DNA of 64,000 nucleotides from a bacterium (GTDB taxonomy: Bacteria > UBA8248 > JACPRG01 > G963555815). Shown here in pieces: positions 12,046 to 45,378 of the stretch. Numbering within the stretch: position 1 is the first letter of the stretch; every line of letters starts with the position of its first letter. The position numbers and the translations under genes are program-made. The stretch is from positions 896,001-960,000 of the forward strand of contig CBDHDG010000005.1 in NCBI GenBank assembly GCA_965261595.1, read 5' to 3'. The notes beneath the pieces were generated by a model that was given only the letters and a program-made list of their open reading frames with translations, was not told the DNA's origin and did no database searches.

Positions 12046-12107
12046 AACCACCTCTGGGGGTTTTCTGGTCCTTTAAATTTGCGAGCAGTTTTCATCTTGT
12101 AGAAAAA

Positions 12108-16543: not shown

Positions 16544-16605
16544 GGGAGGGCGGGCATCCCGCCCGCCGCGGCCTGGAGGGTCACCGACCCGCGCCCGGCC
16601 TACCC
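16544..16605. repeat. REP-like palindrome family GGGCGGGCATCCTGCCCGCC (also 31532-31557, 33428-33505, 38751-38827)
   Basis: Intergenic copies, often inverted pairs ending in CCTACC (GTAG-type tail). Confidence 0.7.
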
Positions 16606-22895: not shown

Positions 22896-22901
22896 GGCGC
22901 G

Positions 22902-24995: not shown

Positions 24996-25044
24996 GGCTT
25001 CCCCTTCTTGTGGAAATGAAAGCGGTTCACATGCGGCGGGCCGC

Positions 25045-28248: not shown

Positions 28249-30631
28249 TCACCCGTCCAGCCGCTCGATTCGGCAGCGGCTCGACCGGTTCGGCGTGGCG
28301 CCACTCACCGGGTCCACCACATCGCTCCCGATGATTCGGTTGAGGTTGGCTCCCGATTCCGAGAAGACGTCGTAGCCCGGAAGCTCCAGCTCTTTGCATT
28401 CCTGCCACCACCCGTGCTGGGTGCACACAACGTCGAGACGGATGGCGTCGGTCACGCGGGCCCGCATGCGGACGCTGCCTTGCGGGGTCTTGAGGCGGAC
28501 CCATTCCCCGTCGGACACCCCCAGCGCGCCGGCGGTTTGGGGATGGATGTCGACTTGGGGGTCCGGCCGCAGCTTTCTGAGGCTGGGAATGGCCCGGTGC
28601 TGCCCGTGGCAGAACTCCAACACCTTGGCCGTGATCATCGTGAGGGGGTAGCTTTCCGGATCGTCCGCCCCGGCCGGAAGCGGGGGCTCGAACTTCGGCG
28701 TCGGCGGCTGGCCCTTCTCAAGGAAGGATTCCAGGTAGAGCTCCACACGGCCCGTGGCGGTTTTGAATCCCCGGGGACGCCCGGTCTCCGGATTGGTTTC
28801 CCGGTATTTATGGTGTTTGACCGGAACGTTGACCTGTATCCCCGCCGGATTCTTCTCCAGATCCTTCAAGGTGAGCCCCGTGGGCGCGAGCTGGGCGTTG
28901 TAGGCGGCCCGGATGTCGCCGTCCCAGAACTGATCGCCCAGCCCCAGGCGCTTGGCCAGCTCGAAGATGATCTCCATGTCCGGCCGCGACTCATGGAGCG
29001 GCGGGACGATCCGCTTGCGAAGCTGGACGAACGTGGGCGCGTCGGTTCCCTGGAAGCCCGCCTTGACGTGGATGGATTCGAGGAAGGTCGAGGCGGGAAG
29101 GAGAATGTCCGCGAACCGGGCGACCGGCGTCTCGAACAGCTCGGCCAGAACGAAGAATTCAAGTTTCTCCAGCGCCTTCTGGCCTTCGAGGGTGTCGCAG
29201 GTCGAAAGGAGGATATTGCCGCCGAAGCTCACGATGGCCCGGATGGGGTAGGGCTTCCCCGTCAGGATGGCGCGAAACACCTCGTAAGGCGGAAGGTGGG
29301 CCGTCGTCCTGGGCGGGCCGAGGGGAAACCGCTCCCAAGCCAGGTTCTTCTCCCGCCTGCCGGGTGGCAGCAGGTGGACGCCGGCGACGCCCATCGCCCC
29401 CGCGCTCGGCCGGGCGATGTTGGCCCCGGGCGCGTCGATCTGACCCGTCAGGCTGAACAGCACTGAGATGGCCCGGTTTGTCTGCGTGGCGTTGGGGTGC
29501 TGCTCGACGCCGTTGTACGTGTAATAGCTGGAAGGTTTAACAGTAGCGAGCATGCGCGCCGCCCGGCGGATGTCGTCTTCGGGAACCCCCGTGATCCGGC
29601 TCACCTCGTCAAGGGGCGTCCGCCCGGCGGCTTCGACCAGGTGGTCCCAGGCCGTCCGGTAGGCGACGGTCTCCCCCGTCGGAAGCGGCGCCGTCCCGGC
29701 GGCGGACAGGGCGGGCGTCAGGGCGAGCGCTTCAAGGTCTTCCAAGGGATGGATCGCGCGGAGCGTCCTTCGCTCTTCGTCCCAGACGATGAACCGGTCT
29801 TCGCCGCCCTCGGGGTCGAGATCGCTTTCCCGCAGGAAGCGTCCTGTGTCCTCGCGGACGGCGAACGGCCCCGTCGTCCAGGTCCGGGCGAACGCCGGGT
29901 CGAACAATTCTTCCGCCAGGAGGACTTGGAGCATCCCCAGGGCCAGGCAGCCGTCGGTCCCGGGCCGGGACGGGCAGCCAGAGGTCCGCCTTATCGGCGA
30001 GGGGGATGCGCCGGGGGTCCACGACGATGAACTTGGCCCCGCGGTCCAGGGCCCGGAGGATGCTCCGGTAATGCCCGCGCCAGGTGTTCTCCGGGTTGTG
30101 GCCCCACAGGACGATGCAGGCCGTCCGGTCGAAATCCGGTTCGGCGATGCCGCTCCCGTAGGTGTAGCGGGAGGCGAAATCCTTGTGCCAGTTGCAGATG
30201 TACATGGCCGAGGAGATGTTGGGGCTGCCGAAGGTGAAGGCGAGGCGGTGGAACCAGGTGTTGAAGTCGCTGGAGGCGGCGCCGCCGGGCGAAGCCCGGT
30301 GGAAATCGACCGCCTCGGCCCCGGAGGCGTCCCGGATCTCCAGCAGCTTCTCGGCGATCGCGTCCAGGGTCTCCTCCCAGGTGATTCGCTCCCAGCCGGG
30401 ATCGGGGGAGGTCTTCGGTTTCGTCCGGCGAACGGGGTGTTTCAGGCGGTCCGGGTGATAGAGGAGCTCCGGCAGGGCCCGGCTCTTGGGGTCCAGCTCG
30501 ATCTCGTGCGGTCCGTTGGGGTGGTCGGGATCGGGGCGGACCTCGACGAGGCGGCCGTCTTCCACCACGCAGATGATCCCGCTCTGGGTTTTGCTCTGTG
30601 CGTCGTAGGTTCGGATCTCGGTCCTTGGCAT
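28249..30631 (-). CDS. Bis-MGD molybdopterin oxidoreductase (acetylene-hydratase-like group), split by +1 frameshift ~29968
   Basis: YHPDRLKHP, WERITWEE, SAMYICNWH, WGHNP, VVDPR, ADILLPAST.LE, C-terminal HGWW; extra C in the PV-R-PGTD motif. Confidence 0.85.
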
Positions 30632-30683
30632 GATCCTTTTCCCTTTCACAGCCCGCGGCGCCTTCTCTTCTCAAGAGGGGAAA

Positions 30684-31472
30684 TCACCCCTCCTCCAATA
30701 TCGCGACCGCCCGCACCCAGCCGGCGCTCCCCCGGGTGATCCGGATGGGAAAGATGGAAACCTTGAACCCGAACGGCTCGGGGATCAGGTCCAGGTTCGC
30801 CAACTTCTCCACGTGGCAGTATTACCGCTCTTTTCCTACGAAGTGGGCCGGGCAATAGGCCGCCTGGTTTCCGGCCTTGAGGTCTTTCGCCATGTCGGGC
30901 AAGGGCCGGTCGAAACTCCAGGCGTCGATCCCCGCGACCTTGACCCCCTGGTCCAGGAGCCAGAGCGTGCTCTCCCGGCCCATGCCGGGCTGGTTCAACA
31001 GGAAATCCGGTTTCTCGTACCGCTTCGTGGCGTCCGTTCGGATAAGGACGATGTCATAGGGCTTGATCCGGTATCTGATCTTCGCGACCGCTTCTTCCAT
31101 GTCCGGGACCGTGATCAGGTCCCCGGCCCCCTTGTGAGTCATATCGAGGACGACGCCGTCGGAGAAGCACCAATCGAGGGGGATCTCATCGGCCGTGCGG
31201 GCGGGCGACCCGGCGCACGTCGGCGAGAAGTGATAGGGAGAGTCGAGGTGGGTGCCCGAATGGGTGTTGATCTCCACGTCTTCGGCCGCGAGGGCCTGGC
31301 CGTCCGGCAGAAGGTCCGGGTCGAAGCCGATCCGCTGCGCTATCCGCCGTGCGCCCTCACGGTGGTTCCAGGGAGAGATGCGCACATGATCGCGATCGAA
31401 GGAGAAATTCTGGAGCGGAACGCTGAGGTCGATGCAGCGGATCCCCGGCCGTCCCTCCGATGAGTTCGACAT
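30684..31472 (-). pseudogene. Cyclase family protein, close paralog of 6459-7247, in-frame TAA at 30822-30824
   Basis: HSGTHLDSPYHF...GKER*YCHVEKLANL...WVRAVAILEEG. Confidence 0.88.
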
Positions 31473-31608
31473 GTCGATTGTCCTCCCGCCTTCCGCGCCC
31501 TGCGAGGTTTGAAGATCGGCCTTGCATGACAGGGTGGGCCGGGCATCCTGCCCGGCCGGATTCAAGACTCCGGATTCCCCGCCGTGCGGTCATTTTAGCC
31601 CTACGCGC

Positions 31609-32820
31609 TTATTTGCCTTTGGGCCTTTCCAGGTTGAACAGCTTCAAGGCGTTCTCTCCCAGGATGTTCCGCCGGCCCTGATCGCTCAGGAAGGGGAGAT
31701 CGAAGATCGCGCTGGGCGGATCGAAGTCCCAGTGGGGCCAGTCCGAGGCGTAGAGCAGTTGGGTCTCGGCGTTGATCATCTTGAACGTAAGCTCCAGGGC
31801 TTCGAGGTTGTCGGCTTCAAGGGGTTGAGAGGAATAATACATCTCGCGCATGTACTCGCTGGGTCGGCGTTTGAGGAGCGGAACCTCGGAGACCCGCTTC
31901 AGGAATTCATTGTCCAGCCGCTGCATGAGGAACGGCAGCCAGGCCAGGCCGCTCTCGATCCAGATGAGCTTGAGGCCGGGGAATCGCTCCGGAAGTCCGT
32001 TGACCACCCAGTTGATCATGTGGATCAGGTTCCACAGGACGAACCCGACGACGTGAACGCCGATGAACTTGGTCATCTGGGCCATGACCGGCTCTTCCCC
32101 CCAGGAGTAGCCGCCGTGGAAAGACAAGGGCATGCCGCGCTCCTGGAGGGTCGCGTAAAGCTTCATGTACTGGTTGTCGTGGACCGGCTTGTTCCGGGTG
32201 CTCGTCAGCATGAAACCGATCACGCCGGTCTGCTCGGAGAACTCCTCCACCGTCCGGACGGCCTCTTCCGGCGTGCTGAACGGCAGATACAGGAGCGACT
32301 TGATTCGATCGTCGCCGGAGAGCACGTGTTCCACCAGCCAGCGGTTGTAGGCCCGGGCCAGCAGGGCCTCGGTTCTCGGGTCCGGGTGCTTGCCCAGGTC
32401 GAGGAGCTTCGTCGGAAAAACGACCATGTAGTCCGTCCCGAATGACTCCATGGCCCGCCGGACGATGGTGACGTCCGTGTGAACGTCGGTGTCCTCGACC
32501 GGCTCGCGCCAGCCCGCCTGATGCTGGATGCGCCCGCCTACATCCTGGTAATACATGATGTTGTTCACCACGCCGTACGGGGGCGATGCCACCTTGCTGT
32601 GGTACTCGATGGCGTGGGCGCGCACGACCGGGTCCTCGATGTACTCCACAACATCCCGCCAGGACGCGTTGTCGGAATGATGGGAATCCACGTCGAAGAT
32701 CACGTAGTCCTTGTAGTTCCGCTTCTCGGCCTGCTGCCTGGCATGCGCGAGGATGTCCCGGGTGTCCGTGCGGTGGTGGATTTGTTCAAGGTCCGCCGCG
32801 CTCGCCGCTTTAGTCTCCAT
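31609..32820 (-). CDS. Amidohydrolase family 2 protein, candidate dimetal oxygenase
   Basis: DVDSHH, RAYNRW, LSFHGG, IESGLAW, YYSSQPLE, YASDWPHWDFD. Confidence 0.85.
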   Translation of the reverse strand: METKAASAADLEQIHHRTDTRDILAHARQQAEKRNYKDYVIFDVDSHHSDNASWRDVVEYIEDPVVRAHAIEYHSKVASPPYGVVNNIMYYQDVGGRIQHQAGWREPVEDTDVHTDVTIVRRAMESFGTDYMVVFPTKLLDLGKHPDPRTEALLARAYNRWLVEHVLSGDDRIKSLLYLPFSTPEEAVRTVEEFSEQTGVIGFMLTSTRNKPVHDNQYMKLYATLQERGMPLSFHGGYSWGEEPVMAQMTKFIGVHVVGFVLWNLIHMINWVVNGLPERFPGLKLIWIESGLAWLPFLMQRLDNEFLKRVSEVPLLKRRPSEYMREMYYSSQPLEADNLEALELTFKMINAETQLLYASDWPHWDFDPPSAIFDLPFLSDQGRRNILGENALKLFNLERPKGK

Positions 32821-32873
32821 TAACCTTTCTCCCGGGTCCGATTCCGGCCGGCTTCCCGGTCCCTCTGTCCGTC

Positions 32874-33239
32874 TTATACAAGGACGTAGACGTCTCCGTC
32901 CCGCACCTCCACCTCGAACTTTTCCAGACGGATGTCGGGGTCCGCCGGATGCGCTCCGGTCCGGATGTCGTACTCGTAGCCGTGCCAGGGGCAGACAATG
33001 TGAATCTTCTCTTCGGCGAACCGGAGACCGAGGCTGGACTGGTCCTCTCCCAGGATCTCTTCCACGTCGCGGAAGAGACGGCCCTGGCAGACGGGACCGC
33101 CCTGGTGGGCGCAATGGTTCCGGTAGGCGTAATAGCTCGGGCCGACGCGGAAGACGCCAATCTCCAGATCATCCCGAACGATGATCTTGCAGTCCCCCTC
33201 CTCGAACTCCGCTTCGCTTCCGGCAAACAACTCAGCCAC
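32874..33239 (-). CDS. Rieske [2Fe-2S] ferredoxin
   Basis: NHCAHQGGP...VCPWHGYEYD. Confidence 0.92.
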   Translation of the reverse strand: MAELFAGSEAEFEEGDCKIIVRDDLEIGVFRVGPSYYAYRNHCAHQGGPVCQGRLFRDVEEILGEDQSSLGLRFAEEKIHIVCPWHGYEYDIRTGAHPADPDIRLEKFEVEVRDGDVYVLV

Positions 33240-33557
33240 GTTCTTCTCCTCCCGGGCGCTCGATGCTCACCAGGCGCGATTCAGTCTTTGAGAATTTACT
33301 CCCGTCAAGGTTAGTCCTAGTTGATCGCAAGGAATCCGCCTTCGAGGGCGAGGCCACGACTCAAATCGAATGCGCATCACAATGCGTTGCTGTTTTCCGC
33401 CCTTGATATATTGCGAACCCCTACTTGGGCCGGGCAGGATGCCCGGCCTACCCATTGGTGTTATCGCTGGTCCCCATATGGGGTGGGGCGGGCATCTTGC
33501 CCGCCTCGAATCCAACTGGGAATGTCCACATTATACACACGGCGGCCTTCCTTCTTT

Positions 33558-35936
33558 TCAGTCCATATCCCGCGCCTGAAGGGCGGTGAAAATCTTTTCC
33601 GGTGTCAGGGGAAGCGTCCGGATCCGGACCCCCACGGCGTCATACACGGCGTTGGCGATGGCGGCGGCCGTCGGCGTGACCGTCGTCTCGGCGAATCCTT
33701 TGGCGCCGAATGGTCCCTCCTCATCGTCGGAGGATACAACGATGGCGTGGACCGGAGGCATGTCCAGGGTGGTCGGCAGTTTGTAGTCGGCGAGGGTGCT
33801 GTTCACGAGCTGGCCCGACGCGGGGTCGAACACCATTTCCTCCATCAGGGCGTAGCCGACGCCCTGCATCACGCCCCCTTCGATTTGTCCCTCCACCCCC
33901 GGCGGGCAGATCGGAAAGCCCACGTCGTGCGCGGCGGCCAGACCGAGAACGCTCACCTGGCCGGTGTCGGGGTCCACCTCGACCTCCGCGACCTGGGCGC
34001 AGAAGCTGTAGGCGGCCGAAATGTTCCCGGAGTGGGTCTCCTTGTCGACGGTTTCGTGGGGCGGGTCGTAGACCCCCCGGCCCATGAAGAGCCGGCCGTC
34101 CCGCCGGTAATGGCCGGACCGTGCGACGTCGGCGATCCCGACGCGCCTTTGCGGCGACCCCCGGACGAATATCTCGCCCTCTCCCACGCGCAGATCCGCG
34201 GCGTCGGCCTCGAGGATTTCTCCCGCTTCCTGAAGGAGCTGGTCTTTCAGCTCGATGGCCGCCCGGCGGGCCGCGTTGCCGGCGATGAAGGTCATCCGGC
34301 TCCCGTGGGTCCCGAGGTCCCAGGGGACCACGTCGGTGTCCTCGCTGTGAATGCGGACGGCCTCGGGCGAGAGGCCGAGCTCCTCCGCCACGACGGCGGC
34401 GATCACCGAGTCCTGCCCGCTCCCGATCTCCGTCGCGCCCGTCAGCACCTGAACCGTCCCGTCGTCCTCCATCTTCACGGTCACGCCGCAGAGGTCGGTG
34501 TTCCGGTAGACGCGGACCCCGCCGCCGCAGTGGACGGCGCAGGCGATGCCGATCCCCCGGCCGAACGTGCGGTCCTTCTTCTTCCCGGCCCAATCCAGGG
34601 CGCCCGCCGCCTTCTCGATGCATTCCCGCATGCCACAGCTTGTGATCCGGTACCCGCAGGCGGAGACGTCTCCGCTCTCCGTGACGTTCTTCAGCCGGAG
34701 CGCCACGGGATCCAGGCCGAGTTTCTCCGCCAGGACGTCCAGGTGGATCTCCCGGGCGAAGGTCCCCTGTGGGTTCCCGTACCCCCGGTAGGAGCCGCCG
34801 TAGTTCTTGTTGGTGTAGACGATCCTGGCGTTGAACCGGTAATGCTCGACCTTGCTGTATGTGGTGATGTTGTAGTTGGCCGCCGTGAACGTGACGCCCG
34901 GGGCCCCGCTCATGTAGGCGCCGTTGTCGGTGACGATCTCCATCTCCTGTCCCAGGATGCGGCCGCCGCGCGTGGCGCCGGTCCGGAGCCGGATGCCCAT
35001 GGGGTGCCGCGTTCTCGACCCCACGAAGTCTTCCTCCCGGGAGAGCATGAGCCGGACGGGCCGCCCGGTCTCCATGGCCAGCAGGGCGCAGATGGGATGG
35101 AAGTCGTGCATCTCCATGCGCTTTCCGAACCCGCCGCCGATGGCCGTTCGAATGATCCGGACGCGGCTTTCCGGAAGGCCGAGGCAGTCGGCCAGGTGTT
35201 TTCGTAAAAGAAAAGGCATCTGGATCGACGTCCAGACCGTCAGGCGGCCGGTCCGGTCGTATCGGGCGAGACAACCCTGGGTCTCCAGACAGCAGTGCTC
35301 GACCTGCGAGGTCTCGAATTCGTCCTCGATCACGACGTCCGCCTCGGCGAGCGCCCGGTCCACGTCGCCGAAGTTCATGGCCAGTTCGATGGCCACGTTT
35401 TCCGCGACGCCTTCGTGCACTTCGGGGGCGTCCGCCGCCATGGCCCGGCGGGGGGAAAGAACGGCGGGCAGCTCTTCGTACTCGACCCGAATCAGGCTGA
35501 GGGCCTCCTCGGCGACGTCGTCTCCGGCGGCCGCCACGGCGGCCACCTCCTCTCCGGCGAATCGGACCTTTTCATGCGCCAGCGGGAGCTTGTCGGCAAG
35601 ACGCCGGTTTCCGGGGTCGGCGTCCTGGCGGAAACCATACCGGAGCAGCGGTGTGTCCCGGGCCGTGAGGATCGCCTGGACGCCGGGCAGGGCCGCGGCG
35701 GCCCCGGTGTCGATGCCGAGAATCCGCGCGTGAGCGTAGGGGCTACGGAGGATCTTCCCGGTCAGCGCGTCCGGCAGCGTGAAGTCCGTCCCGTAAACGG
35801 TCGTTCCGGCGGCCTTGGGCGCTCCGTCGTGCTTGGGGAATCGCCGGCCGACGACCCGATAGTTTCTCCCCTCCCCCTCATCCTTCATGCGGGTCTCCGG
35901 GCTCGGTTGGAGGTTGCCACTGGTCTTTCTCATCAT
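33558..35936 (-). CDS. Xanthine dehydrogenase family molybdopterin-binding subunit
   Basis: ILRSPYAHARI, GGGFGKR, YRGYGNPQ, EGQIEGG, GPFGAKG. Confidence 0.93.
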   Translation of the reverse strand: MMRKTSGNLQPSPETRMKDEGEGRNYRVVGRRFPKHDGAPKAAGTTVYGTDFTLPDALTGKILRSPYAHARILGIDTGAAAALPGVQAILTARDTPLLRYGFRQDADPGNRRLADKLPLAHEKVRFAGEEVAAVAAAGDDVAEEALSLIRVEYEELPAVLSPRRAMAADAPEVHEGVAENVAIELAMNFGDVDRALAEADVVIEDEFETSQVEHCCLETQGCLARYDRTGRLTVWTSIQMPFLLRKHLADCLGLPESRVRIIRTAIGGGFGKRMEMHDFHPICALLAMETGRPVRLMLSREEDFVGSRTRHPMGIRLRTGATRGGRILGQEMEIVTDNGAYMSGAPGVTFTAANYNITTYSKVEHYRFNARIVYTNKNYGGSYRGYGNPQGTFAREIHLDVLAEKLGLDPVALRLKNVTESGDVSACGYRITSCGMRECIEKAAGALDWAGKKKDRTFGRGIGIACAVHCGGGVRVYRNTDLCGVTVKMEDDGTVQVLTGATEIGSGQDSVIAAVVAEELGLSPEAVRIHSEDTDVVPWDLGTHGSRMTFIAGNAARRAAIELKDQLLQEAGEILEADAADLRVGEGEIFVRGSPQRRVGIADVARSGHYRRDGRLFMGRGVYDPPHETVDKETHSGNISAAYSFCAQVAEVEVDPDTGQVSVLGLAAAHDVGFPICPPGVEGQIEGGVMQGVGYALMEEMVFDPASGQLVNSTLADYKLPTTLDMPPVHAIVVSSDDEEGPFGAKGFAETTVTPTAAAIANAVYDAVGVRIRTLPLTPEKIFTALQARDMD

Positions 35937-37300
35937 CCGATGGTTCTTCGCAGGACCCGTCCGCGTCCCGGTTTGACGAGAATCTCGTTGTTCTCGACGG
36001 CGACGACGCCCCCTTGAATCGTCATGACCGGCCAGCCCCGAAGGGTTTTCCCTTCGTAGAGGGAAAAGTCCGTTTGCGTGTGAAGGCTCGCCGGCCGGAC
36101 CACCCTCCGCTTGTCGAGATCCACGATCACCAGGTCCGCGTCGCTACCGGGGGCGATGGCCCCTTTCCGGGGATAGAGGCCGAAGATCCGGGCGGGCTGC
36201 CGCGTCATCTTGTCCACCAGCCGCTCCAGCGGGAATTTCCGGCGGTGAACGCCCTCGTCGAGGAGAACGGGCAGATGGGTTCCCAGAAGGGTGGCCGCGC
36301 CCCGGGCGTCGATGAGGCCCGCGTCGGCTTGTTTGAAAGCCAGGGTTCGGAGGATGTTGTCCGTTCCCAGGGTATCGATCACGTCCTCTTCCATTCCTCT
36401 CCAGAGGGATATCCGGTTTTCTTCGTCCCGCAGGGGCGGGATGAGCTTGGCGAGCAGGCCCATCTCCGAGCGGTGGGTCAGCGTGAGGTAAGGGGAGCAC
36501 GTCTCGGCGTAAACGGTCCCGCTCTCCTTCCGGAATTCCTTGAGTCTGCGCAGGGCCTCGGCGGTGGAGACATGGACGATATAAATCCGGCACCCGGCTT
36601 TCCCGGCCAGGTAGACGGAGCGGTGGACCGCCTCCTCTTCGACGATGTTCGGGTGGCAGTCGGCCCAGTCGGCCAGGTTCCCGTTGGGTCGCAGCCGTCC
36701 GATTCGCTCGCGGGTCCGGGTGATGATGTCGGGGTTCTCGGCATGAACGAGGGCGATCCCGCCGGAACCGAGCTTCGCGATCTGCCGGAAGGATTCGAGC
36801 AGCAGTCCGTCATCCACTGGGACCGACATGCCTTTGATCGGAATGCCGGACATGAACATCTTGAACGAGGTGACGCCGAGCCGCTTCGCGCATTGAGGGA
36901 TCTCGCGGGCGTGGGACCCGGAGTTGATCTCGAAGTGGGGAATGATGTCGATTGAGCTGTTGGCCTCGAGGATTTTCGTGAGCGAGCCGAATGTCTTGAG
37001 GTGTGATCCGGACTCGCGGATGAAGACCCCGATCGTCGTTACGCCTCCGGCCAGGGCGGAGCGCGTCTCGGACCGGCAGTCCCCGGCCATGTCTCCCAGC
37101 AACCCCAGGTGGACGTGGGGGTCGATGATGCCGGGCAGGACGAACTTCCCCTTGGCGTCGATGACGCGCTTGGCGGAAGGAAGAAGGTCGTCGCGGGCGA
37201 CGACCCGGATCTTCCCGCCCTGTATTGCGACCCCGGCCCGGATGAGCCCGTCGCCGGGGATGACGAGCGTCCCGCCCCGAATGACCAAATCCGCTTTGAT
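35933..37300 (-). CDS. Cyclic amidohydrolase (dihydropyrimidinase/allantoinase/dihydroorotase-like)
   Basis: LPGIIDPHVH, GGVTT, SFKMFM, VHAEN, IVHVST, KGAIAPGSDADLV; start ATC at 37300 or TTG at 37288. Confidence 0.9.
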   Translation of the reverse strand: MKADLVIRGGTLVIPGDGLIRAGVAIQGGKIRVVARDDLLPSAKRVIDAKGKFVLPGIIDPHVHLGLLGDMAGDCRSETRSALAGGVTTIGVFIRESGSHLKTFGSLTKILEANSSIDIIPHFEINSGSHAREIPQCAKRLGVTSFKMFMSGIPIKGMSVPVDDGLLLESFRQIAKLGSGGIALVHAENPDIITRTRERIGRLRPNGNLADWADCHPNIVEEEAVHRSVYLAGKAGCRIYIVHVSTAEALRRLKEFRKESGTVYAETCSPYLTLTHRSEMGLLAKLIPPLRDEENRISLWRGMEEDVIDTLGTDNILRTLAFKQADAGLIDARGAATLLGTHLPVLLDEGVHRRKFPLERLVDKMTRQPARIFGLYPRKGAIAPGSDADLVIVDLDKRRVVRPASLHTQTDFSLYEGKTLRGWPVMTIQGGVVAVENNEILVKPGRGRVLRRTIG

Positions 37301-37329
37301 GACGTCCCCCCCCCCCTCTATCGGGTTGT

Positions 37330-38634
37330 TCAGAAAACCCGCTGGTCCTCGACGTCTGTGGCGACGGCCAGGAGGGCGCGCTCGACGAGCTTTCGCCGGA
37401 ACGCCTTCTCTTCCGCGGGCCCCAGGTCGGGGTTGCCCGTGACGTGCGGGATCCCGGCCCCGGTCACGATCCGGTTCGCTCCGACGTTCTTCGCGATCGA
37501 CGTGAGCGTCGCAATCAGGGCCGCCGGAAGCCCCTGCCGCTCAATCTCCTTCGCGACCGCTGACCCGCAGCGGGTGCACGTCCCTCACGTGGAGGTGACG
37601 AGGACCGCGTCCACCCCCGCCGCCTTCAGATCGAGGGCGATTTCCTTTCCCATCCGCGCCCCGGCCTCGTAATACGTGCTGCACCCGGCCAGGGTGTAGA
37701 AGTGGTCGAAGACCTTTCTGATCCGCCCCTGTGCTTCCAGCTCCCGAAGGGCGTCCAGGGGGACGATCCGGTTGGGGTCCTCGTTGACGTAGGCGGTTGA
37801 ATACCCCCCGTGATTGCCTTCGTAGGCGGAAGGGTCGAGGCCGTCGAGGCCGGCCAACGCGTATTTGCCGAAACGCGTCGCCATGGTGGATTCGAGTCGA
37901 TCGGGGTTTCCCTTGGGCGTCAGACCCCCGGTCGTGACCAGTGAGATGGTGGTCTTCGTCAGGTCTTTGACGGGCGGCGCCGGCGGCGTCCGGTCGAATT
38001 TCGGCATCACCAGCTCGGTCTCGAACGCCCGGCCTCCGGTCTTCGCCAGGAGCATCTCGATGGCCCGGTCGGCCCCCTTCTTCCCGACGCGGATGTTCCT
38101 GCGGAATCCCCGGGGGAAGGTTCCTTCCTCCCGGGGAGGGCTGGGGGTCTCGCCCCGCAGGAGCTTCAAGCCCAGGCGGCCCATGGCCGCGAGGGCCGCG
38201 TTCATCCCCCGGACGTTGTCCGAGGTGGAAACGATGTAGGCGTCCTTCCGGTATTCCAGGCCCGGGTTTTCCGGCGCCATGGCGGTCAGCGTCGGGATGT
38301 CGAGGGCTTGGCCGACCTTTCGGCAGAGGACGCCGCAGGCGTACCCGTAGCGTCCGGCGTTGAAGGCCGGCCCGGCCACGAAGAGATCCGGCTTAGCGCT
38401 TTGGATGATCTCCAGCAGCGCCTCCGCCGCTTCCTCGGTGCGCTCGGCGAAGAAGTCATCCCCGCAAACGGCGGTCAGGACGATCTCCCCTTCGCCGCGC
38501 AGCGCCTCCTGAAGCGGCCGTCCCGGCCCCGTGGCCCCCGGAAGGGCGTCGGGGCCGGCGGAGGCCTGTGTCTCTCCGCCGATCCCCGCGAAGAACTGAT
38601 TCAGGTAATGGACGACCCGCATCCGATCAGTCAT
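37330..38634 (-). CDS. Glycine/sarcosine/betaine reductase selenoprotein B family protein; Sec at TGA 37585-37587
   Basis: VHYLNQFFAGIGGE, GPAFNAGRYG, HGGY...DPNR.VPLD, VTST-U-GTCTRCG, then the conserved tail GANRIV..AGIPH.TGNP to the stop at 37330. Confidence 0.93.
37553..37584 (-). promoter_or_regulatory. Putative bacterial SECIS hairpin
   Basis: After UGA: GGGACGUGCAC-CCGCUG-CGGGU-CAGCGG; loop starts 17 nt after the UGA and contains G. Confidence 0.7.
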
Positions 38635-38936
38635 GTCTATCCCTCCCGCAAATTTCGCGGGCAACAGGTTACCGAAAAATCCCTTGAGGCGGAAGGAGGA
38701 GGCGATGGCGGACAGACACAACCGTCTCTTGCCGCCAGTGGCGCCTTGAAGGCGGGCAGGATGCCCGCCCTACCTAAATGGTTGTACGCCTCTCATGCCC
38801 GCCGGTCGGCCGGGCATCCTGCCCGGCTCGGTCGGATTAGCGCGCCTCTTTTATGGTCTGATGCCGCCATCGGCGTGCAACAGGTCTTCGCGGTCGGTAT
38901 TCTGAGCGCGCCTGAACCGGATTTCTCGACCCCATG

Positions 38937-40205
38937 TCAGAACTCCTGGACGCCCAGGTCATTGTCCCCGAAGAAGCTGACCGGCCCCGGGATCTTGTTG
39001 TAGGGGACCTCGACGGGCGCGCCGGGGTCCTGGTCATAGTCCTTTAGCCGCTCGCCGCCGATGACCCGGTTCATCCCCGGGAGCGGGAGCATTTCCGCGC
39101 AGTTGCCCAGGGCGACGATGGCGTCGGCCCGGGGGCTGGCGTCGGCCAGGGCGCCCTCCGAGGAGCCGCCCGCCCCGGCGAACTCCATCGCAAGGATCGT
39201 CGTCTTGATTCCCTTCTCCTCGCAGCGCTCGCAGGTCAGCATGAGGTCGGTGTCCGCCTGTCCGCCCCCGTCCTTGGTGATCACCACACTGTCCACGCCC
39301 AGGATGTCCTTCGCCAGGTGAGCCACTTGCTCCGCGTTGAAGGCCTTTTCGGCGAAGAGCTTGTGATGGTTGGCGAGGATGGTGGCGGCGTAATGAAGGG
39401 TTTCCCCGTCGTCCCGGTAAAGGGAGCGGATGATCCCGTTGTTCTGGTTGTCGTACGTCATGTTCTTGGTCGGCCGGCTGAACCCGGCCCAGACGACGGC
39501 TCCGTCCATGATTTCATTGGGGTGAATGAGCGTCGGGGCCAGCGCCCGGGTGTCCCGCCCGTAGACGAGCATGTCCCGGAGGTCGCCGTGGGAGTAGAGG
39601 AAATAGACATACGCGATTCTGGGAAGGGCGGAGTCTTCTCCCGCTCTCTCCGCCGAAGGGGGCAGCTCGAAATCTTCCGCCAACTCCGGCGTTTTCCCCT
39701 CGGCCGTCCGTCCGAGGTAATGGGCGGCCCGGACGCCCGTCTCGACCGCCGCCTTCGCGAACCCGGTCCGGCTCAATCCGTCGGCGGGGTTCAGGGTGAG
39801 CACAATGTTTTCCAGGCCGGAGAAGACGCTGAGGTCCGCACAGGGCCCGGTCATGTCCAACAGGGCGTCCTCGGCACCTTCGAGGGGTCCGCACGTCACG
39901 ACCGAGACCCCTTGCAGTACGTTCGTGACGCCGCTGCCCACGAGGCCGGCGTCGCCGAGGATTCCGGGAAAGGTCTCTCCTTCGCCCGAGACCTTCACAC
40001 GGGGTTCGAAGATGTCGAGGATGTTGATGACCCGGCAGGACTCGCCGGGGTGAGCCAGGTCGATCTCGACGGAGCGAAGCCTCTTATCCTGCGCGAGAAG
40101 GTCTCTCAACTCCCCCCGATTCAGAAGCAGCCTGTGGCCGTCGAGCTCCGTTCGCCGGGAGTCTTCGACCCGCTCGACCGGAAAATTTTGCAAAGTCAAC
40201 TTCAC
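38937..40205 (-). CDS. Glycine/sarcosine/betaine reductase component B proprotein (GrdE/GrdI-like)
   Basis: MKLTL..F.V, PGES.R...DIFEPRVK, LLDMTGP, LIHPNEIMDGA, TYDNQNN, D.DLML.C. Confidence 0.88.
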   Translation of the reverse strand: MKLTLQNFPVERVEDSRRTELDGHRLLLNRGELRDLLAQDKRLRSVEIDLAHPGESCRVINILDIFEPRVKVSGEGETFPGILGDAGLVGSGVTNVLQGVSVVTCGPLEGAEDALLDMTGPCADLSVFSGLENIVLTLNPADGLSRTGFAKAAVETGVRAAHYLGRTAEGKTPELAEDFELPPSAERAGEDSALPRIAYVYFLYSHGDLRDMLVYGRDTRALAPTLIHPNEIMDGAVVWAGFSRPTKNMTYDNQNNGIIRSLYRDDGETLHYAATILANHHKLFAEKAFNAEQVAHLAKDILGVDSVVITKDGGGQADTDLMLTCERCEEKGIKTTILAMEFAGAGGSSEGALADASPRADAIVALGNCAEMLPLPGMNRVIGGERLKDYDQDPGAPVEVPYNKIPGPVSFFGDNDLGVQEF

Positions 40206-40376
40206 GGGAATCCCCCGCCTACGCTCGTCCGCCTAGCAGGTTGCGGAAAAACGATTTGTCGGTCCCGCAAAACCCTGTCCATTTCCCGCCGGGCGATCCA
40301 ATCGACAGGTTTGTCCGGACTTTCCGGTTCTGCGGTCTGTCCAGGCTCTCCAAACGCGTTGCGTTGTCCTCTCGGT

Positions 40377-41384
40377 TCAAGGACTTTTCGGGAAAAGCTT
40401 GGGCAAGAACTTGTTGGTGTAAACCTCCGAAGTGGAAGGTTTGCGCGGGAGGTTCATATATTTCGCCAGAACGTCCACGGTGTGGGCCATCTTCTTCTCA
40501 TCCATATGGCCGATCCCATGGGTTTTGGCGTACTCGGACAGCAACAGCTCCACGGCAATGGCCAGCTGCCTTTTCGCGATGGAACGGTCAAGGGTCGGCG
40601 TTTGGGCCATGAAGATGTCGAGAGCCTCTTTTGGGTTCTCCACGGACCAGGCCCAGGCCCTCATGGTGGCCCGGACGAAGCGGCCCACCTGGCCCGGGTT
40701 CTGTTGAATGCGCTTGTCCACGGCCACGAGACCGTTGGAGTAGAGATCCAGGCCGTTCTCGGAAAAGCGCAGGATGGAGATCTTCAGGTTCACCTTCCGG
40801 GCGCTCGCCAGGATGGCGGGGGCGTCCGTGACGTAGTTGCTGATGGCGTCCACGCGACCCGAGAGAAGGCTCGGCACCTTCGCCGATCCCGACATGCCGA
40901 TCCATTCAACGTCGCTTCCCTTGAAACCGTTCGACATGGCGAAGGCTGGAAAGATGATCCGGACGGCATCGCCCTTTCGTCCGCCGAACTTCTTCCCGAT
41001 AAAGTCCTTCGGCTTTTTGTAGCCGTTCTTGCTCAGGGAGAAGACGGCATGTGGGGCGCGGTCGTGAATCATGCCGAGGACCTTTACGGTGAGGCCGCGC
41101 GTGCGACCCACGATGACCGCGCCCACATCGGCGAACCCGTAGTCGCTCGTCTCGGTGGCCACCGCCTTGACCGTATTGCCCGACCCTCTTCCCCGGAGGA
41201 TCTCCGGGTCCAGACCTTCCGCTTTATAGAGTCCCTTCTTGACCCCTGCGAACCAGGGCGAGTGCTTCCCGTTCAGGATCCAATCCATCATCACGACAAG
41301 CCGCTCGGCCCGCACGGGAGCGGAAAGAGAGCAAAGGAATATGCCCGTGAACATCGCTGCCAGGCTCCATCTCATCCAACGCAT
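40377..41384 (-). CDS. ABC transporter substrate-binding protein, NMT1/THI5-like
   Basis: Signal peptide; DWILNGKHSPW, GRGSGNTV, GLDLYSNGL, VYTNKFL. Confidence 0.88.
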   Translation of the reverse strand: MRWMRWSLAAMFTGIFLCSLSAPVRAERLVVMMDWILNGKHSPWFAGVKKGLYKAEGLDPEILRGRGSGNTVKAVATETSDYGFADVGAVIVGRTRGLTVKVLGMIHDRAPHAVFSLSKNGYKKPKDFIGKKFGGRKGDAVRIIFPAFAMSNGFKGSDVEWIGMSGSAKVPSLLSGRVDAISNYVTDAPAILASARKVNLKISILRFSENGLDLYSNGLVAVDKRIQQNPGQVGRFVRATMRAWAWSVENPKEALDIFMAQTPTLDRSIAKRQLAIAVELLLSEYAKTHGIGHMDEKKMAHTVDVLAKYMNLPRKPSTSEVYTNKFLPKLFPKSP

Positions 41385-41708
41385 CGCGATCTCTCCTTTT
41401 GATTTTCCCGACGCGCCTCTTGGTAGCCGGCAGGGTCTATGATCCCATCCCCACCGCGTCTGGCGGGGACAGTCGGGCCACCACTCACTCCATCCCTCTT
41501 GACGAGACCGCCGGCCGCCTCCGGTCGTCCAAACACCTCCTCCAGCCCGCGATAGGCAAGCAGGCCGCCATCGCTCGCGACCCTGCCTCCGTAAAAATGC
41601 TGTCTTACCTGACATCGCCCGGATACCCGTTGCGAGCACCCGTTGTGGGCACCCCGGATTCCATGCCCGGCCGTCGTGAATTTGTATCGAACCGGGTCGT
41701 CTTCCCTT

Positions 41709-43124
41709 TTACGGCTTCTCCGCAGAGAGTGAGGCTTTGTCCTGATGGGAGAGGATGGTATCCAGGTCAATCTGATCCGTAAGGCGGTTGGAAATCCGTT
41801 CGGGCCACTCATAGCCATAGCCGATGGGGCGAGTGGCATCGATTCCAATCTTCGTCACCAGGCCGTCCCGGCTCGACCGGGTGATGTTCTGGGCCGTTGG
41901 GTCGAGCCGACACCCCCGAGCGCCGGGCGCCAGGAGGATGTCGCGCTCCCCCTGAACGCGCGTGGCGATGGCCCAGCTCACCTCTCGGGAGTTTCCGATG
42001 TCGATGTCGTCGTCCACGACGACGGCCATCCTGAGCATGGTGTCCCGTCCCAGGGTGAAGAGGAGGACGTTCTTGGCGTCCCCTTCATTGACCTTCTCCA
42101 TGGAGATGTGGACCATGAATCCGAACTGTTCGATGGGGAATCGGACCGAGCGCACGGTCGGGATCACTTTTCGGAGCTCGCGAAGCAGGGCAGCCTCGCG
42201 GGCGGGAAGGGCCAGGAACACGTGCTCGGCGAGGCCTGAGGCGATGGTTTGGTAGTAGGCCCCTTGACGATGGGTGATGGCGCTGAGCCGCATCACGGGC
42301 CGTTCGACGATCTGACCGTAGTGTCCCGTGAACTCTCCGAATGGACCTTCCACCTCCCGGCGACCCGGCAGGATCTCCCCTTCCAGGACAATTTCCGCGT
42401 CCGCCGGCACCTCCAGGTCGACGGTCTCGCACGGGACCAGATTGATGGGTTCCCCCAGCAAACCCGATGCGACCTCATATTCATCGTCCCCCGTCGCCAC
42501 GGAGGCCAGACCTTGAGAGGCCAGGTACAGGGCAGGATGGGCTCCGAGGATAATCGCAACCGGCAGGGGTTGCCCCTTCTCTTCGGCCTGCCGGTGCAGA
42601 AATTGAATCTGCTTCCCCCAGCTGTAATACAGTCCAATGTGAGACTCGTCGATGAGACGGTTGCGGAAGATTCCCAGGTCCACCTTCCTGGAAACCGGGT
42701 CTCGGCTGACGGCGATCCCGGCGGTGATGTAAGGGGCGTCGTCTGCGTCGTTGTGGGTGAAGACGGGAAGCCTGCGGATGTCTATATCATCGCCTGTGAG
42801 GATCACTTCACGCACCGGCCCGTCCATCACCCGCCGAGGGGCAATGCGCTCAGATTCGCGGCTCGCGATGGTTTCGAGCAGCTCTTCCTCCTCGACCCCC
42901 AGGGACCATGCAACCCGCCGGCGCTCGGCCATGACATTGCACACCACCGGGAAATCGGAACCCACAATGTTCTCGAAGACTAAAATGGGAAAGCGATGCT
43001 CCTTTTCGAGGCGCGCAATGATGGCGGTCGCTTCCAAGTACGGATCAACCGGTTTCTGCACATGGATGATTTCTTCGGGCGAACGAGAACCCATCTCATC
43101 GAGCACCCCCCGCAGATCTTTCAC
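41709..43124 (-). CDS. UbiD family (prFMN) decarboxylase
   Basis: DDAPYITAG, VPADAEIVLEG, EGPFGEFTGHY, VVVDDDID, WAIATR, LDPT, KIGIDAT; start approximate. Confidence 0.93.
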   Translation of the reverse strand: MKDLRGVLDEMGSRSPEEIIHVQKPVDPYLEATAIIARLEKEHRFPILVFENIVGSDFPVVCNVMAERRRVAWSLGVEEEELLETIASRESERIAPRRVMDGPVREVILTGDDIDIRRLPVFTHNDADDAPYITAGIAVSRDPVSRKVDLGIFRNRLIDESHIGLYYSWGKQIQFLHRQAEEKGQPLPVAIILGAHPALYLASQGLASVATGDDEYEVASGLLGEPINLVPCETVDLEVPADAEIVLEGEILPGRREVEGPFGEFTGHYGQIVERPVMRLSAITHRQGAYYQTIASGLAEHVFLALPAREAALLRELRKVIPTVRSVRFPIEQFGFMVHISMEKVNEGDAKNVLLFTLGRDTMLRMAVVVDDDIDIGNSREVSWAIATRVQGERDILLAPGARGCRLDPTAQNITRSSRDGLVTKIGIDATRPIGYGYEWPERISNRLTDQIDLDTILSHQDKASLSAEKP

Positions 43125-43615
43125 TTGAACCTCCTGATTCCCGGGGCCTAATTTCTCAAGCCGGTCCATGGAGGGCTCGGATGTGTCGGAGCATCCCGGA
43201 CCCAACCTCCCTGTCATGAAACTCTTGCACCCGAATCACGCCTGAGGCGTCAAGCCAATCCTGGACATAGAAGGACCGGTGTCACGGACTTACACGGTTC
43301 AAGACGGATGAGCGGGCATTATAGCGCTAACGATGATCTGTCGTCAAATACCATAAGATTGGTCCCTCCTGCGGGGGTGTTTGTTACATGGAGATCAATG
43401 TCTCCAGCGGGTAACGCAATCCGGGGCGTCCCCTTCATGGGCCCGCACGTCACAAAGGAGGCACTGGCGGGAAAGCCGTCGGTGACACCCTTCCCTGAAT
43501 CACAGGGTGTTCAGACCCTGTCATTCTTTTCTCTTCGTGCAACATCTAGATCCACAACGAGTTAACAAGATTAAATCAGGCTTACCTCTTCTCTTTGTGG
43601 GGAATCCGGGCTCAC

Positions 43616-44614
43616 TCACTTCGCCATTTGCGGAAGGAACGCGTTGGTGTAGACGTCGTCGGTTTTCACGCGCACCTTCAGCGGGGTGTACTTGGTGATG
43701 ATGTCCACCGTCCGGTCCATTTTCCCGGAGTCCATATAGCCCAGGCCGTGCTCGATCACGCCCTGATCGATATTGAGCTTCCGGGTCTGGTGGTACTGCA
43801 AGCGGACCACCTTCGGGTTCGAGGTGGGGGAGTACTTCAAGAAGTTGTTCAGGCACTTGTCCATGTACACCATGCAGTGACCCCAGGCGTCGATGCTGGC
43901 GCGGACGAACCGCTTGAGGATCCCGGGGTTGTTCCGGATGGTGTCATCGTGGGCGATCGATGCCGTTGGCGTAGATGTCCACGCCCCACTCGCTGAAGCG
44001 CAACATCTCGCTGTCTTTTCCCGCTTTGCGGGCGGCCGCCTGGAAGTTGGGCTGTTCGTCGGCGAAGATGGGAATGGCGTCCAGCTTGCCCGTCAGGACG
44101 CCCGGGAGCATGGTGCCGTAACCCAAGGTGGTCCAGGAAACCGTTTTGGGGTCCAGGCCGTTGGCGTTGGCGAAGGCGGGGAACACCTTCCAGGCCGCGT
44201 CCCCTTCGGGACCGCCCAGCCGCGCGCCGGCGAGATCTTTGGGGTGTTTGTATCCTTTCGACTTGAGGTGCCAGATGGCCATGGGGGTCTTGGCGTAATA
44301 CATGGCGAGAACTTTGACCTTGGCTCCCTTCGAGCGGCGATGATTAAGGAGCCCACGTCGGCGAAGCCGAGGGGCGCCGTCTTTGCGGCGATGCGCTTGA
44401 TGGTGTCCCCGGAACCAAAGCCCCGCTCGATTTTTACGTCGAGGCCCTCCTTCTTAAAGTACCCGAAGTCCTTGGTGGCAAAGAAGGGGACGTGCTCGCT
44501 GTAGAAGATCCAGTCCAAATACCAAGTCACTTTTTCCTGGGCCGCGGGGGACCCAATCCAGCCAGCCGCAATCAGCCACGCGCTTACGATGACTGCCGTC
44601 ATTCCCTTTTTCAT
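43616..44614 (-). pseudogene. NMT1/THI5-like substrate-binding protein with frameshifts ~44335 and ~43958
   Basis: LDWIFYSEHVPF...GFGSGDT, then AIWHLKS...DIYANG, then DVYTNAFL in successive frames. Confidence 0.8.
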
Positions 44615-44738
44615 TTTTCCCCCCTTGGAATGGGCTTGAGCGGAAGCTTGAAATCGCATTCCGCGTGAGACCATATAGGGTGGTGCTCCGTCGAAATTTC
44701 CGACTTTCCCGGGGCGCATTTCCGCGTTCGGACTTCTC

Positions 44739-45353
44739 CTATGGGTCATAAATCTGAACCCGCAACGGCCCGCCCGTGGCGGGGCAGGCGCTCAGCGCGC
44801 ACAGGACGTCCATCTCGGCCACGCAATCAACGTAGTCGCCGGGCTGGCTCCGGCCTTCGGCGAGGGCGAACCTCCCTTCCTCCGGAACGAAGTCCACGGT
44901 TTGAAACAGGTTCAACGGGTCGGGGATGTCCTCGGCCGGGATGTTCCAGGGCTTGAGTGCCTCAGTCAGGATCTCCCAGCAGCCGACCTCGGGCCGGCCG
45001 AGGGCGCCGCCCACGGTGAAGCCCTCGGCGAAGCTGTGTGATTCTCTCTGGTAGACGAACCGGCTGCACATCCCGTATTGCAGGTCATGAATGCCGTACG
45101 TGTCCTCGACGATGGTCAGCATGACGTTGTTGGACTTGGAGTAGAGGTGATCCCCCGTGGAGATCAAATACTTTCCCGGGTTGGATCGGGTTCGGGATTG
45201 GTTGAACCGCTCGCTGAGGTCGTTGGCGTTGAACAGGACCAGGTCGCCGATCTGTCCGCCCTCGACGTCGATGAACCGGATGCGCCGCCCCTTCTTCACG
45301 ATCCACGCCCCGCCCCGACGGGCCGGAATGGTTTCATCCTTGAGAAGATTCAT
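44739..45353 (-). CDS. DUF1989 / urea carboxylase-associated family protein
   Basis: IDVEGGQIGDL..FNA, EDTYGIHD, GC, LNLF, SQPGDYV, LSACP. Confidence 0.87.
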   Translation of the reverse strand: MNLLKDETIPARRGGAWIVKKGRRIRFIDVEGGQIGDLVLFNANDLSERFNQSRTRSNPGKYLISTGDHLYSKSNNVMLTIVEDTYGIHDLQYGMCSRFVYQRESHSFAEGFTVGGALGRPEVGCWEILTEALKPWNIPAEDIPDPLNLFQTVDFVPEEGRFALAEGRSQPGDYVDCVAEMDVLCALSACPATGGPLRVQIYDP

Positions 45354-45378
45354 CGCGAGCCTCCCGGACGGGTCCCGG

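Follow-up and report, generated by a model that had tools for sequence, protein, structure and literature searches.

A Grd-type selenoenzyme pair outside the canonical groups in a conserved operon with a cyclic amidohydrolase, a molybdenum subunit and a predicted oxygenase

Introduction

Grd-type selenoenzymes are known from textbooks as Stickland enzymes of strict anaerobes and have three classical substrates. In the clostridial Stickland reductases, component B works with selenoprotein A and component C. Fluoroacetate and, probably, a flavin side chain have recently been added to the substrates of the family. Here we describe a GrdE-like/GrdB-like gene pair on the minus strand of a 64,000-nucleotide (nt) stretch of bacterial DNA, referred to as the window (G000:C5:896001-960000), in a genome of 6.17 Mb with ~63% G+C (G000). 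A first-pass annotation of the window had taken the pair for a stand-alone selenoenzyme and a good candidate for an undescribed substrate. The latter view gained support. The pair falls within a small clade made up of members of this bacterial family alone, and it stands in a conserved operon. With slightly better than even confidence, we read the pair as the substrate-specific protein B of a selenium-dependent Grd-type system. Its substrate, X-CH2-COO-, would be made by the operon neighbours, and it would feed a shared GrdA/GrdC.

The betaine reductase GrdH/GrdI (Eubacterium acidaminophilum type) resembles the window pair in being a two-gene B protein with selenocysteine (Sec) in a UxxCxxC motif. 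At the GrdE cleavage position GrdI also carries Phe instead of Cys, and betaine reductase likewise belongs to a set of B proteins that presumably draw on one GrdA. However, the window protein scores far below the GrdH cut-off, lies in a separate clade and has other motifs in the substrate region. Its genome has no GrdD, and its partners are an amidohydrolase, a molybdenum (Mo) subunit and a predicted amidohydrolase-related dinuclear oxygenase (ARO), not a betaine transporter. With the glycine reductase GrdB/GrdE, the pair shares the domain families, the length, the Sec motif and a Sec insertion sequence (SECIS, putative here) directly past the TGA. The GrdB-like protein is ~48-52% identical to GrdB sequences that pass the GrdB cut-off. 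It differs in its lower score and its deviating motifs, in a GrdE-like subunit without both processing cysteines, and in that grdA, grdC, grdD and trx are not part of the window operon.

Two systems outside Stickland metabolism are also related. FarB/FarE of Cloacibacillus porcorum (PMC10838667) is a B pair of the Grd type whose substrate logic is not that of an amine. The processing cysteines are missing from FarE, and the pair is an additional paralogue in a genome with a common Grd system. In contrast to the window protein, which keeps it, FarB is reported to have no CxxC, and the operon partners there are an antiporter and a radical SAM enzyme. The FinH/FinI pair of the 'flavin induced neighbourhood' of Clostridium scindens (bioRxiv 10.64898/2026.02.13.705874) is a Grd-family pair in an operon that degrades an N-heterocycle (riboflavin) and does not serve the Stickland reaction. 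This likeness is drawn from the published description of the operon. Its partners are a kinase, an aldolase and dehydrogenases, and C. scindens is a strict anaerobe.

The last two genes of the window operon resemble AibH2/AibG and SfbO (PMC10811679, PMC13154177, PMC7782822) in their ARO motifs and in the proximity of a Rieske gene. They differ in that the window has a single ARO gene rather than an H1H2 heterodimer, and no adjoining reductase gene. In the available portions of the ARO literature (PMC10811679, PMC13154177), we found no linkage of an ARO to a Grd-type selenoenzyme and a Mo subunit. Likewise, the available portions of the literature on glycine reductase homologues and GrdD loss yielded no account of GrdD-less systems or of this clade. 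New here are the six-gene operon and its conservation, the signatures of the clade, the count of GrdD across the phylum and the recognition of the ARO.

Placement of the pair outside GrdB, GrdF and GrdH

The GrdB-like protein covered PF07355 in full (profile positions 2-347 of 347), and scored 506 bits against the Grd/Prd selenoprotein B subfamily model TIGR01918 (cut-off 65.45). The genomic context of that subfamily was also present, with a PF09338 gene directly upstream and grdA, selA/B/D and tRNA-Sec in the genome. Models of individual reductases gave a different picture. The GrdB-like protein reached 476 bits with the GrdB model (TIGR01917, cut-off 602; its orthologues 486 and 493), 508 with the GrdF model (NF040794, cut-off 800) and 434 with the GrdH model (NF040795, cut-off 775). 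The GrdE-like protein reached 312 bits with the GrdG model (NF040793, cut-off 780). Each of these equivalog cut-offs was thus missed by 125-470 bits, and the GrdE-like protein also scored only 168 bits with the FarE model (NF053623, cut-off 675). The labelled references comprised one GrdF (844 bits), GrdH (800 bits, and more that pass NF040795) and GrdB (716 and 753 bits). In a control scan of 29 homologues, 11/11 members of the large Bacillota-centred canonical clade exceeded the GrdB cut-off (627-767 bits), while the other 18/18 failed. PDB sequence searches with the two proteins of the pair returned zero matches at E<=0.01.

The motifs led to the same result. The conserved GrdB motif is A-H-G-G-x-D-[QTAP] ... 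R-V-[IL]-P-x-D ... T-x-G-N-x-T-x-V (Nobu et al. 2022, PMC9751293), at which the window protein has N-H-G-G-Y-S-T, R-I-V-P-L-D and L-A-G-C-S-T-Y-Y. The GrdF motif I-H-G-G-Y-D-R ... T-T-G-T-G-T from the same source was also absent. In our alignment, the two diagnostic segments read A-H-G-G-Y-D-P and T-V-G-N-G-T-S-V in GrdB, I-H-G-G-Y-D-R and T-T-G-T-G-T in GrdF, and I-H-A-G-Y-D-P and T-V-G-T-G-T-T in GrdH. Those of the window clade read [NH]-H-G-G-[YF]-[SM]-T and G-C-S-[TA]-[YA]-Y-E, the latter within A-G-C-S-T-Y-Y-E in the window protein itself. Among the best 120 matches in a collection of 5.8 billion protein clusters, 17 carried both clade signatures and 103 carried neither.

Trees of 104 and 116 sequences were built with IQ-TREE (quick mode, LG+G4, SH-aLRT support only). 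They are unrooted, and several long branches elsewhere in them were flagged. The window protein fell within a clade of nine (SH-aLRT 100 and 99), all from its own GTDB family, and was not nested in the groups of the GrdB, GrdF or GrdH references. The GrdH sequences formed a separate clade of seven rows with support 100. Within the clade of nine, clade A (support 97-98) consisted of the window protein and its counterparts in G001, G003 and G002. G000 and G001 belong to one genus (g1), G003 (a complete genome of 5.2 Mb) and G002 to another (g2), all in one GTDB family. Clade B (support 98) consisted of a paralogue on contig 4 of G000 and its orthologues, and one row of the nine came from a short G006 contig. 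Judged by sequence, the pair falls outside the canonical glycine, sarcosine and betaine reductases, as the first-pass annotation had suspected. It probably cleaves some nitrogen compound other than glycine.

These results bear directly on a simpler explanation. The pair might be an ordinary glycine or sarcosine reductase B protein, whose neighbours take apart a ring of the purine, hydantoin or creatinine type. The glycine or sarcosine so formed would then be reduced in the manner of purinolytic clostridia. The two top named models, GrdF and GrdB, point in this direction. Clostridial purine fermentation uses a Mo hydroxylase, a cyclic amidohydrolase and decarboxylases, and these enzyme types are encoded around the pair. 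In addition, the window has hyuA/hyuB and an isochorismatase-family amidase (20733-25713), the enzyme types of the route from N-methylhydantoin through N-carbamoylsarcosine to sarcosine. Against this stand the size of the score deficits, the deviation from both the GrdB and GrdF motifs and the absence of both GrdE/GrdG processing cysteines. In the trees, the clade is also separate from the 11 homologues that exceeded the GrdB cut-off. We consider such a reductase unlikely.

Selenocysteine in the GrdB-like protein

The in-frame TGA at 37585-37587 corresponds to residue 350 (Sec350), in the context T-S-T-U-G-T-C-T-R-C-G, and the true stop of the frame is a second TGA at 37330-37332. This is the UxxCxxC motif noticed in the first-pass annotation. 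All 106 GrdB homologues cut from the fetched loci had an in-frame TGA at the equivalent place, and 105 had exactly one. The remaining row had two, plus another stop. Downstream of the TGA, a 23-nt block that starts 10 nt past it was invariant in 8/8 genes of the clade, in host genomes that are locally 43-64% G+C. Among codons of invariant residues, the third base was also invariant in 7/12 at codons +1 to +12, but in only 1/27 within the 80 codons upstream and in 1/29 downstream. These observations indicate that the use of this TGA as a Sec codon is not due to chance.

The block can be folded into a 6-bp hairpin with a 5-nt G-rich loop (-8.1 kcal/mol) and is a putative SECIS core. When the 60 nt that follow the TGA were folded as a single sequence, the result was no better than for shuffled sequences (z 0.47), and RNAalifold on the eight clade genes found a compensatory change in 0/12 pairs. 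No covariation is visible because the block is invariant. The case for a SECIS is therefore based on conservation, not on covariation.

Altered cleavage site of the GrdE-like subunit

The GrdE-like protein has a Phe aligned to the self-cleavage Cys of GrdE and GrdG, so that F-S stands here in place of C-V. The site reads G-N-C-V-S/A-A/P-C in GrdE and GrdG, and G-S-F-M-P-C in the three GrdI references. In contrast, it is A-G-F-S-R-P in the window protein, and G-[FY]-S-R-P in this protein and its three orthologues taken together. Clade B proteins have G-F-C-R-P in three of four cases, and F-S in the fourth. GrdE autoprocessing needs two cysteines, and FarE, like GrdI, has no processing cysteines (PMC10838667). 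In the alignment, both cysteines are absent from the GrdE-like subunit, which is therefore not a proprotein in the sense of that study. The subunit probably carries no pyruvoyl group, and its substrate probably needs no Schiff base.

A partner without the cleavage Cys is also typical of betaine-type enzymes, and the Phe matches that of the three GrdI references. Together with the binding-protein gene upstream of the pair, this fits a GrdH/GrdI-like reductase for a quaternary or cationic N-compound imported via the NMT1 protein, among otherwise unrelated catabolic genes. The low GrdH score, the separate, well-supported clade of the GrdH references and their distinct motifs (I-H-A-G-Y-D-P and T-V-G-T-G-T-T, neither shared by the window protein) all argue against such an enzyme. 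Moreover, the operons of G003 and G002 lack the NMT1 gene but retain those for the amidohydrolase, the Mo subunit, the Rieske protein and the ARO. This explanation seems distinctly unlikely.

Conservation of the operon

The first-pass annotation had named five co-directional genes, for an NMT1-type binding protein, the GrdE-like and GrdB-like proteins, an amidohydrolase and a Mo subunit. All five were confirmed on the minus strand, with the tight spacing it had described. A gap of 41 nt separates the GrdB-like stop from the start of the amidohydrolase gene, and the amidohydrolase and Mo subunit genes overlap by 4 nt. The annotation overlooked two further conserved genes of the operon, which encode a Rieske ferredoxin and the ARO, a PF04909 'Amidohydro_2' protein.

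Six genes, in the order GrdE-GrdB-amidohydrolase-Mo subunit-Rieske-Amidohydro_2, were conserved in G000, G001, G003 and G002, and hence in two genera. The order in G001 matches that of the window from Amidohydro_2 to a second Xdh gene, save for one extra CDA-type deaminase gene. In G003 and G002, the order is [DUF1989]-GrdE-GrdB-amidohydrolase-Mo subunit-Rieske-Amidohydro_2, flanked by housekeeping genes (pdxA/ksgA/lepA on one side, icd on the other). Between the genera, the proteins are 79-81% (Amidohydro_2), 73-76% (Mo subunit), 72-73% (amidohydrolase), 64-68% (Rieske), 65-67% (GrdB) and 64-71% (GrdE) identical. The NMT1 protein has a 96%-identical counterpart in G001 but none in the G003 and G002 operons; its upstream position is thus specific to genus g1. 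It scored 58 bits against the SsuA-family model, whose cut-off is 163.

Searches with seven neighbour proteins (tblastn) did not find the module in 78 loci of other phyla. The matches there were scattered and single: UbiD in L073, Xdh in L078 and a 26%-identical Amidohydro_2 in L118. A Binatia locus, sister to the clade, has another context, which consists of ECH, a non-ARO-type Amidohydro_2 and TctABC. Within G000, a third and very divergent GrdB/GrdE pair (G000:C2:292000-312000, L007) is ~40-42% identical to the window pair. Its cluster includes a UbiD protein (39%), an Xdh Mo subunit (41%), a cyclic amidohydrolase (42%) and a DUF1989 protein (37%), and additionally a metallo-beta-lactamase-fold protein, a CN-hydrolase and an isochorismatase.

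The GrdB/GrdE pair could have merely landed among catabolic genes, in which case its position next to them would say nothing about function. Many unrelated hydrolase and oxygenase genes, as well as insertion sequence elements, crowd the window, and the conserved operon is seen in close kin only. However, the same six-gene order is kept in two genera at different chromosomal places, as the housekeeping flanks in G003 and G002 reveal. The genes abut or overlap in G003, where GrdE and GrdB are 16 nt apart and the Rieske start overlaps the end of the Mo subunit gene by 8 nt, and the paralogous contig-2 cluster holds the same set of families. An accidental association thus appears extremely improbable.

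Partners of the pair in the operon

The amidohydrolase had an L-hydantoinase as its best PDB match (1gkr, 3.6e-68). It scored 277 bits against the D-hydantoinase/dihydropyrimidinase model TIGR02033 (cut-off 393) and 241 against the allantoinase model (cut-off 358). It is assigned, on these scores, to the cyclic-amidohydrolase superfamily only. The best PDB match of the Mo subunit was the alpha subunit of 4-hydroxybenzoyl-CoA reductase (1rm6_A, 6e-138; next match 1e-94), yet its score with the corresponding model TIGR03194 was 675 bits against a cut-off of 995. No Fer2_2 or flavin adenine dinucleotide (FAD)-subunit gene stood beside the Mo subunit in the G003 and G002 operons. In the window, the nearest Fer2_2 gene is 9.4 kb away, beside a second Mo subunit.

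The small Rieske protein has the ligand motifs C-x-H and C-x-x-H. The best PDB matches of the 'Amidohydro_2' protein were 8sm7_A (3.5e-43), then SfbO (8sm6) and AibH2 (6m1w_B, 8ful), all of them AROs. AROs are O2-dependent C-H hydroxylases with an Fe/Fe or Mn/Fe site, found via neighbouring small Rieske ferredoxins (PMC10811679), and have an N-terminal D-x-H and a C-terminal D-x-P-H-x-[D/E] motif (PMC13154177). Both motifs, as D-S/C-H and D-W-P-H-W-D, were present in 6/6 module proteins examined. An aromatic residue inside the second motif has been linked to Rieske-partnered AROs (PMC13154177), and the window protein has such a residue. A small Rieske gene within three genes is the neighbourhood test for an ARO (PMC10811679), and here one lies directly upstream in all four operons and in the contig-4 cluster. 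The 'Amidohydro_2' protein is thus a predicted O2-dependent ARO with its Rieske ferredoxin and, by its relatives, not a hydrolase.

Shared Grd components and the absence of GrdD

Inside the window there was no match to grdA, grdC, grdD, thioredoxin or trxB, just as the first-pass annotation had stated, and whole-genome searches placed these elsewhere or nowhere. The pair is not stand-alone beyond the window, however. The genome encodes grdA, grdC, trxA/trxB, the full Sec machinery and two more GrdB/GrdE pairs. A whole-genome search of G000 found three full GrdB-type genes and one short PrdB-like match. Contig 4 carries the one grdA, with Sec in a C-F-V-U motif, and the one grdC beta gene (533 bits, cut-off 450). 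The order there is GrdE-GrdB-GrdA-GrdC-Rieske-Amidohydro_2, so that the sister paralogue, which bears the clade signatures, lies directly beside grdA-grdC. The Sec machinery comprises adjoining selA and selB, selD and one tRNA-Sec. Contig 7 encodes trxB (369 bits, cut-off 343) and a thioredoxin, trxA (107 bits). All four operon-bearing genomes have grdC. In the three that were examined for grdA (G000, G002 and G003), this gene lies beside grdC, whereas the G001 contig breaks off shortly after grdC. A common reductase system can be served by several B proteins that differ in substrate (PMC10838667), and G000, with multiple B proteins, one GrdA and one GrdC, has the architecture described in that source.

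As a separate observation, selD (G000:C5:89297-90265) itself has one in-frame TGA, and its product is probably a Sec-containing SelD.

GrdD is the missing component of the set. The best match in G000 reached 27 bits against a cut-off of 350, so that the complete GrdC plus GrdD system was not found, and the grd set of the genome is incomplete. The GrdD model (NF040747, E<=1e-10) had matches in 0/51 genomes of the phylum, 29 of them >=90% complete with <=5% contamination. In the same 51 genomes, grdC was found in 36 (34 over the cut-off) and GrdB in 36. The positive control, Caldanaerobacter, gave 579 bits. Nothing above 21 bits was found in four other non-Firmicute genomes with a non-canonical GrdB (Anaerolineales, Desulfobaccales, Binatia and a 'delta proteobacterium' metagenome-assembled genome; G052-G055). 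The inspected genomes of family f4 have the cluster order GrdC-GrdA-GrdE-GrdB. In work by Kohlstock et al. from 2001, GrdD reportedly carries the thiol for acetyl phosphate formation.

The pair might nevertheless be truly stand-alone and independent of GrdA and GrdC, for instance if it used its Sec to act as a lyase or hydrolase towards a ring-opened product. None of the four genomes has grdA or grdC inside the operon, and the phylum-wide lack of GrdD implies that the canonical chain is already altered. Such independence would sit poorly with the presence of grdC in every operon-bearing genome and of grdA beside it in three, with the position of the sister paralogue next to grdA-grdC, and with the intact UxxCxxC for selenoether and redox chemistry. 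We judge it very unlikely.

Proposed function

In the preferred reading, a protein B that feeds the shared GrdA/GrdC, the chemistry, the partnership, the identity of X and the end product are all inferred, the chemistry by homology. An X-CH2-COO- compound would bind the GrdE-like/GrdB-like pair, as expected from homology with the glycine, betaine and fluoroacetate reductases. Sec350 would attack the alpha carbon, and X-H would leave. The carboxymethyl group would pass as a selenoether to the single GrdA encoded on contig 4. The one GrdC would then process it, with thioredoxin supplying the electrons. The neighbours conserved along with the pair are the most likely local source of the substrate. 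To supply it, an N-heterocycle would be oxidised and its ring opened by the Mo hydroxylase and the hydantoinase-like amidohydrolase, and the ARO and its Rieske ferredoxin would work on compounds of the same family. From the enzyme types, one may guess at hydantoate, formiminoglycine or guanidinoacetate for X-CH2-COO-. That an ARO occurs both here and next to the contig-4 paralogue points either to an oxidation during substrate synthesis or to a second, O2-dependent way of breaking the same bond.

Several points weigh against this proposal. The operon is known from four close-kin genomes, and its conservation is within one family, not an independent recurrence. An O2-dependent oxygenase is a puzzling operon partner for a reductive selenoenzyme. 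GrdD, the subunit known to make acetyl phosphate, was found in 0/51 genomes of the phylum, so that the downstream chemistry cannot be simply copied from Clostridia. The best NCBIfam scores are still those of GrdF and GrdB, so that a glycine-like substrate is possible. The residue after the Phe of the GrdE-like site is Ser in clade A (4/4) and Cys in 3/4 of clade B, and may be a shifted self-processing site, hence a pyruvoyl group.

A bolder scheme is a dual-mode pathway for one N-substituted acetate, X-NH-CH2-COO-, made from an N-heterocycle by the Mo hydroxylase and the hydantoinase-like enzyme; the three compounds named above are candidates for it. The Sec enzyme would cut the C-N bond reductively under anoxic conditions with GrdA/GrdC, and in the presence of O2 the ARO would cut it oxidatively, by alpha-hydroxylation to glyoxylate. 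Electrons from the Mo subunit would pass through the Rieske ferredoxin to the ARO. The GrdD-less Grd systems of this phylum and of other non-Firmicutes would end in a product other than acetyl phosphate. We regard this scheme as speculative and rather improbable.

What makes the locus of interest is a well-delimited clade tied to an operon with a ring-opening amidohydrolase, a Mo subunit without its usual Fe-S/FAD partners and an ARO, in a host that also has oxygenase-based aromatic catabolism. The pcaHG-like genes noted in the first-pass annotation for an O2-dependent enzyme are indeed in the window, at 2594-3883. The operon offers a testable entry to a further substrate class for selenium-dependent C-X cleavage. 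It likewise offers an entry to how Grd systems work without GrdD (0/51 phylum genomes, and missing in 4/4 other non-Firmicutes checked), and to a first physiological context for an orphan ARO oxygenase.

Features of the locus and minor observations

The minus-strand co-directional run spans 31609-43217 and was counted as nine genes, eight of which are included in Table 1. An Rfam scan of 31000-46000 (E<=0.1) gave zero matches.

Table 1. Positions of the operon, its context genes and other elements in the window
Feature	Position	Strand	Remarks
DUF1989 protein, context gene	44739-45353	minus	PF09347; in G003 directly upstream of GrdE
UbiD-family decarboxylase	41709-43217	minus	context gene, genus g1 only; 97% identical in G001
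NMT1/THI5-type periplasmic substrate-binding protein, 335 amino acids (aa)	40377-41384	minus	PF09084 8.7e-40
GrdE-like subunit, 422 aa, GTG start	38937-40205	minus	PF09338 2.5e-115
REP-like inverted-repeat pair	38754-38824	strandless	within 302-nt GrdE-GrdB spacer
GrdB-like selenoprotein, 434 aa	37330-38634	minus	PF07355 3e-131
Putative SECIS core, 23-nt block	37553-37575	minus	invariant in 8/8 clade genes
Cyclic amidohydrolase, hydantoinase/dihydropyrimidinase-like, 451 aa	35933-37288	minus	PF01979
Xdh-family Mo subunit, 792 aa	33558-35936	minus	PF02738, PF20256, PF01315
REP-like inverted-repeat pair	33432-33502	strandless	within 318-nt Mo subunit-Rieske spacer
Small Rieske [2Fe-2S] ferredoxin, 121 aa	32874-33239	minus	PF00355 1.1e-10
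PF04909 'Amidohydro_2' protein, predicted ARO, 403 aa from ATG	31609-32820	minus	PF04909

Repeats resembling repetitive extragenic palindromes (REP) were noted in the window. Their 14-nt palindromic core occurs in 6 copies (<=1 mismatch), against 0.12 expected. Twice, two copies ~57 nt apart form an inverted pair, and these pairs fill the two ~300-nt spacers of the operon; further copies lie at 31540-31553 and 16551-16564. The orthologous operons of G003 and G002 have tight junctions where the window has REP-filled spacers. The extra gene of the CDA/dCMP-deaminase family in G001 (L044:13258-13740) lies between GrdE and NMT1, where the window has a 171-nt spacer (40206-40376).

Upstream of the run, a second NMT1-type gene (43290-44749, minus) is split over two frames that cover profile positions 3-58 and 70-180. 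A pseudogene with a frameshift, or else an error of assembly, is the probable explanation. Its counterpart region in G001 is only ~310 nt. A second Xdh-type pair, with a Fer2_2 small subunit and a Mo subunit, lies further upstream (45379-48200, minus) and is kept in G001; no FAD subunit gene for it was seen among the scanned ORFs. On the other side of the operon, a molybdopterin oxidoreductase of the dimethyl sulfoxide reductase type (28249-30649, minus) is present as two overlapping ORFs in different frames, and as a single 798-aa ORF in G001 (L044:886-3282).

The hyuB-hyuA genes, of the ATP-dependent hydantoinase/oxoprolinase type, stand beside the isochorismatase-family gene on the minus strand, 12 kb from the Grd-like pair. 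The catabolic region is broken up by three transposase genes at 9424-13823, one of the DDE_Tnp_1_4 family and two of the rve type with helix-turn-helix partners.

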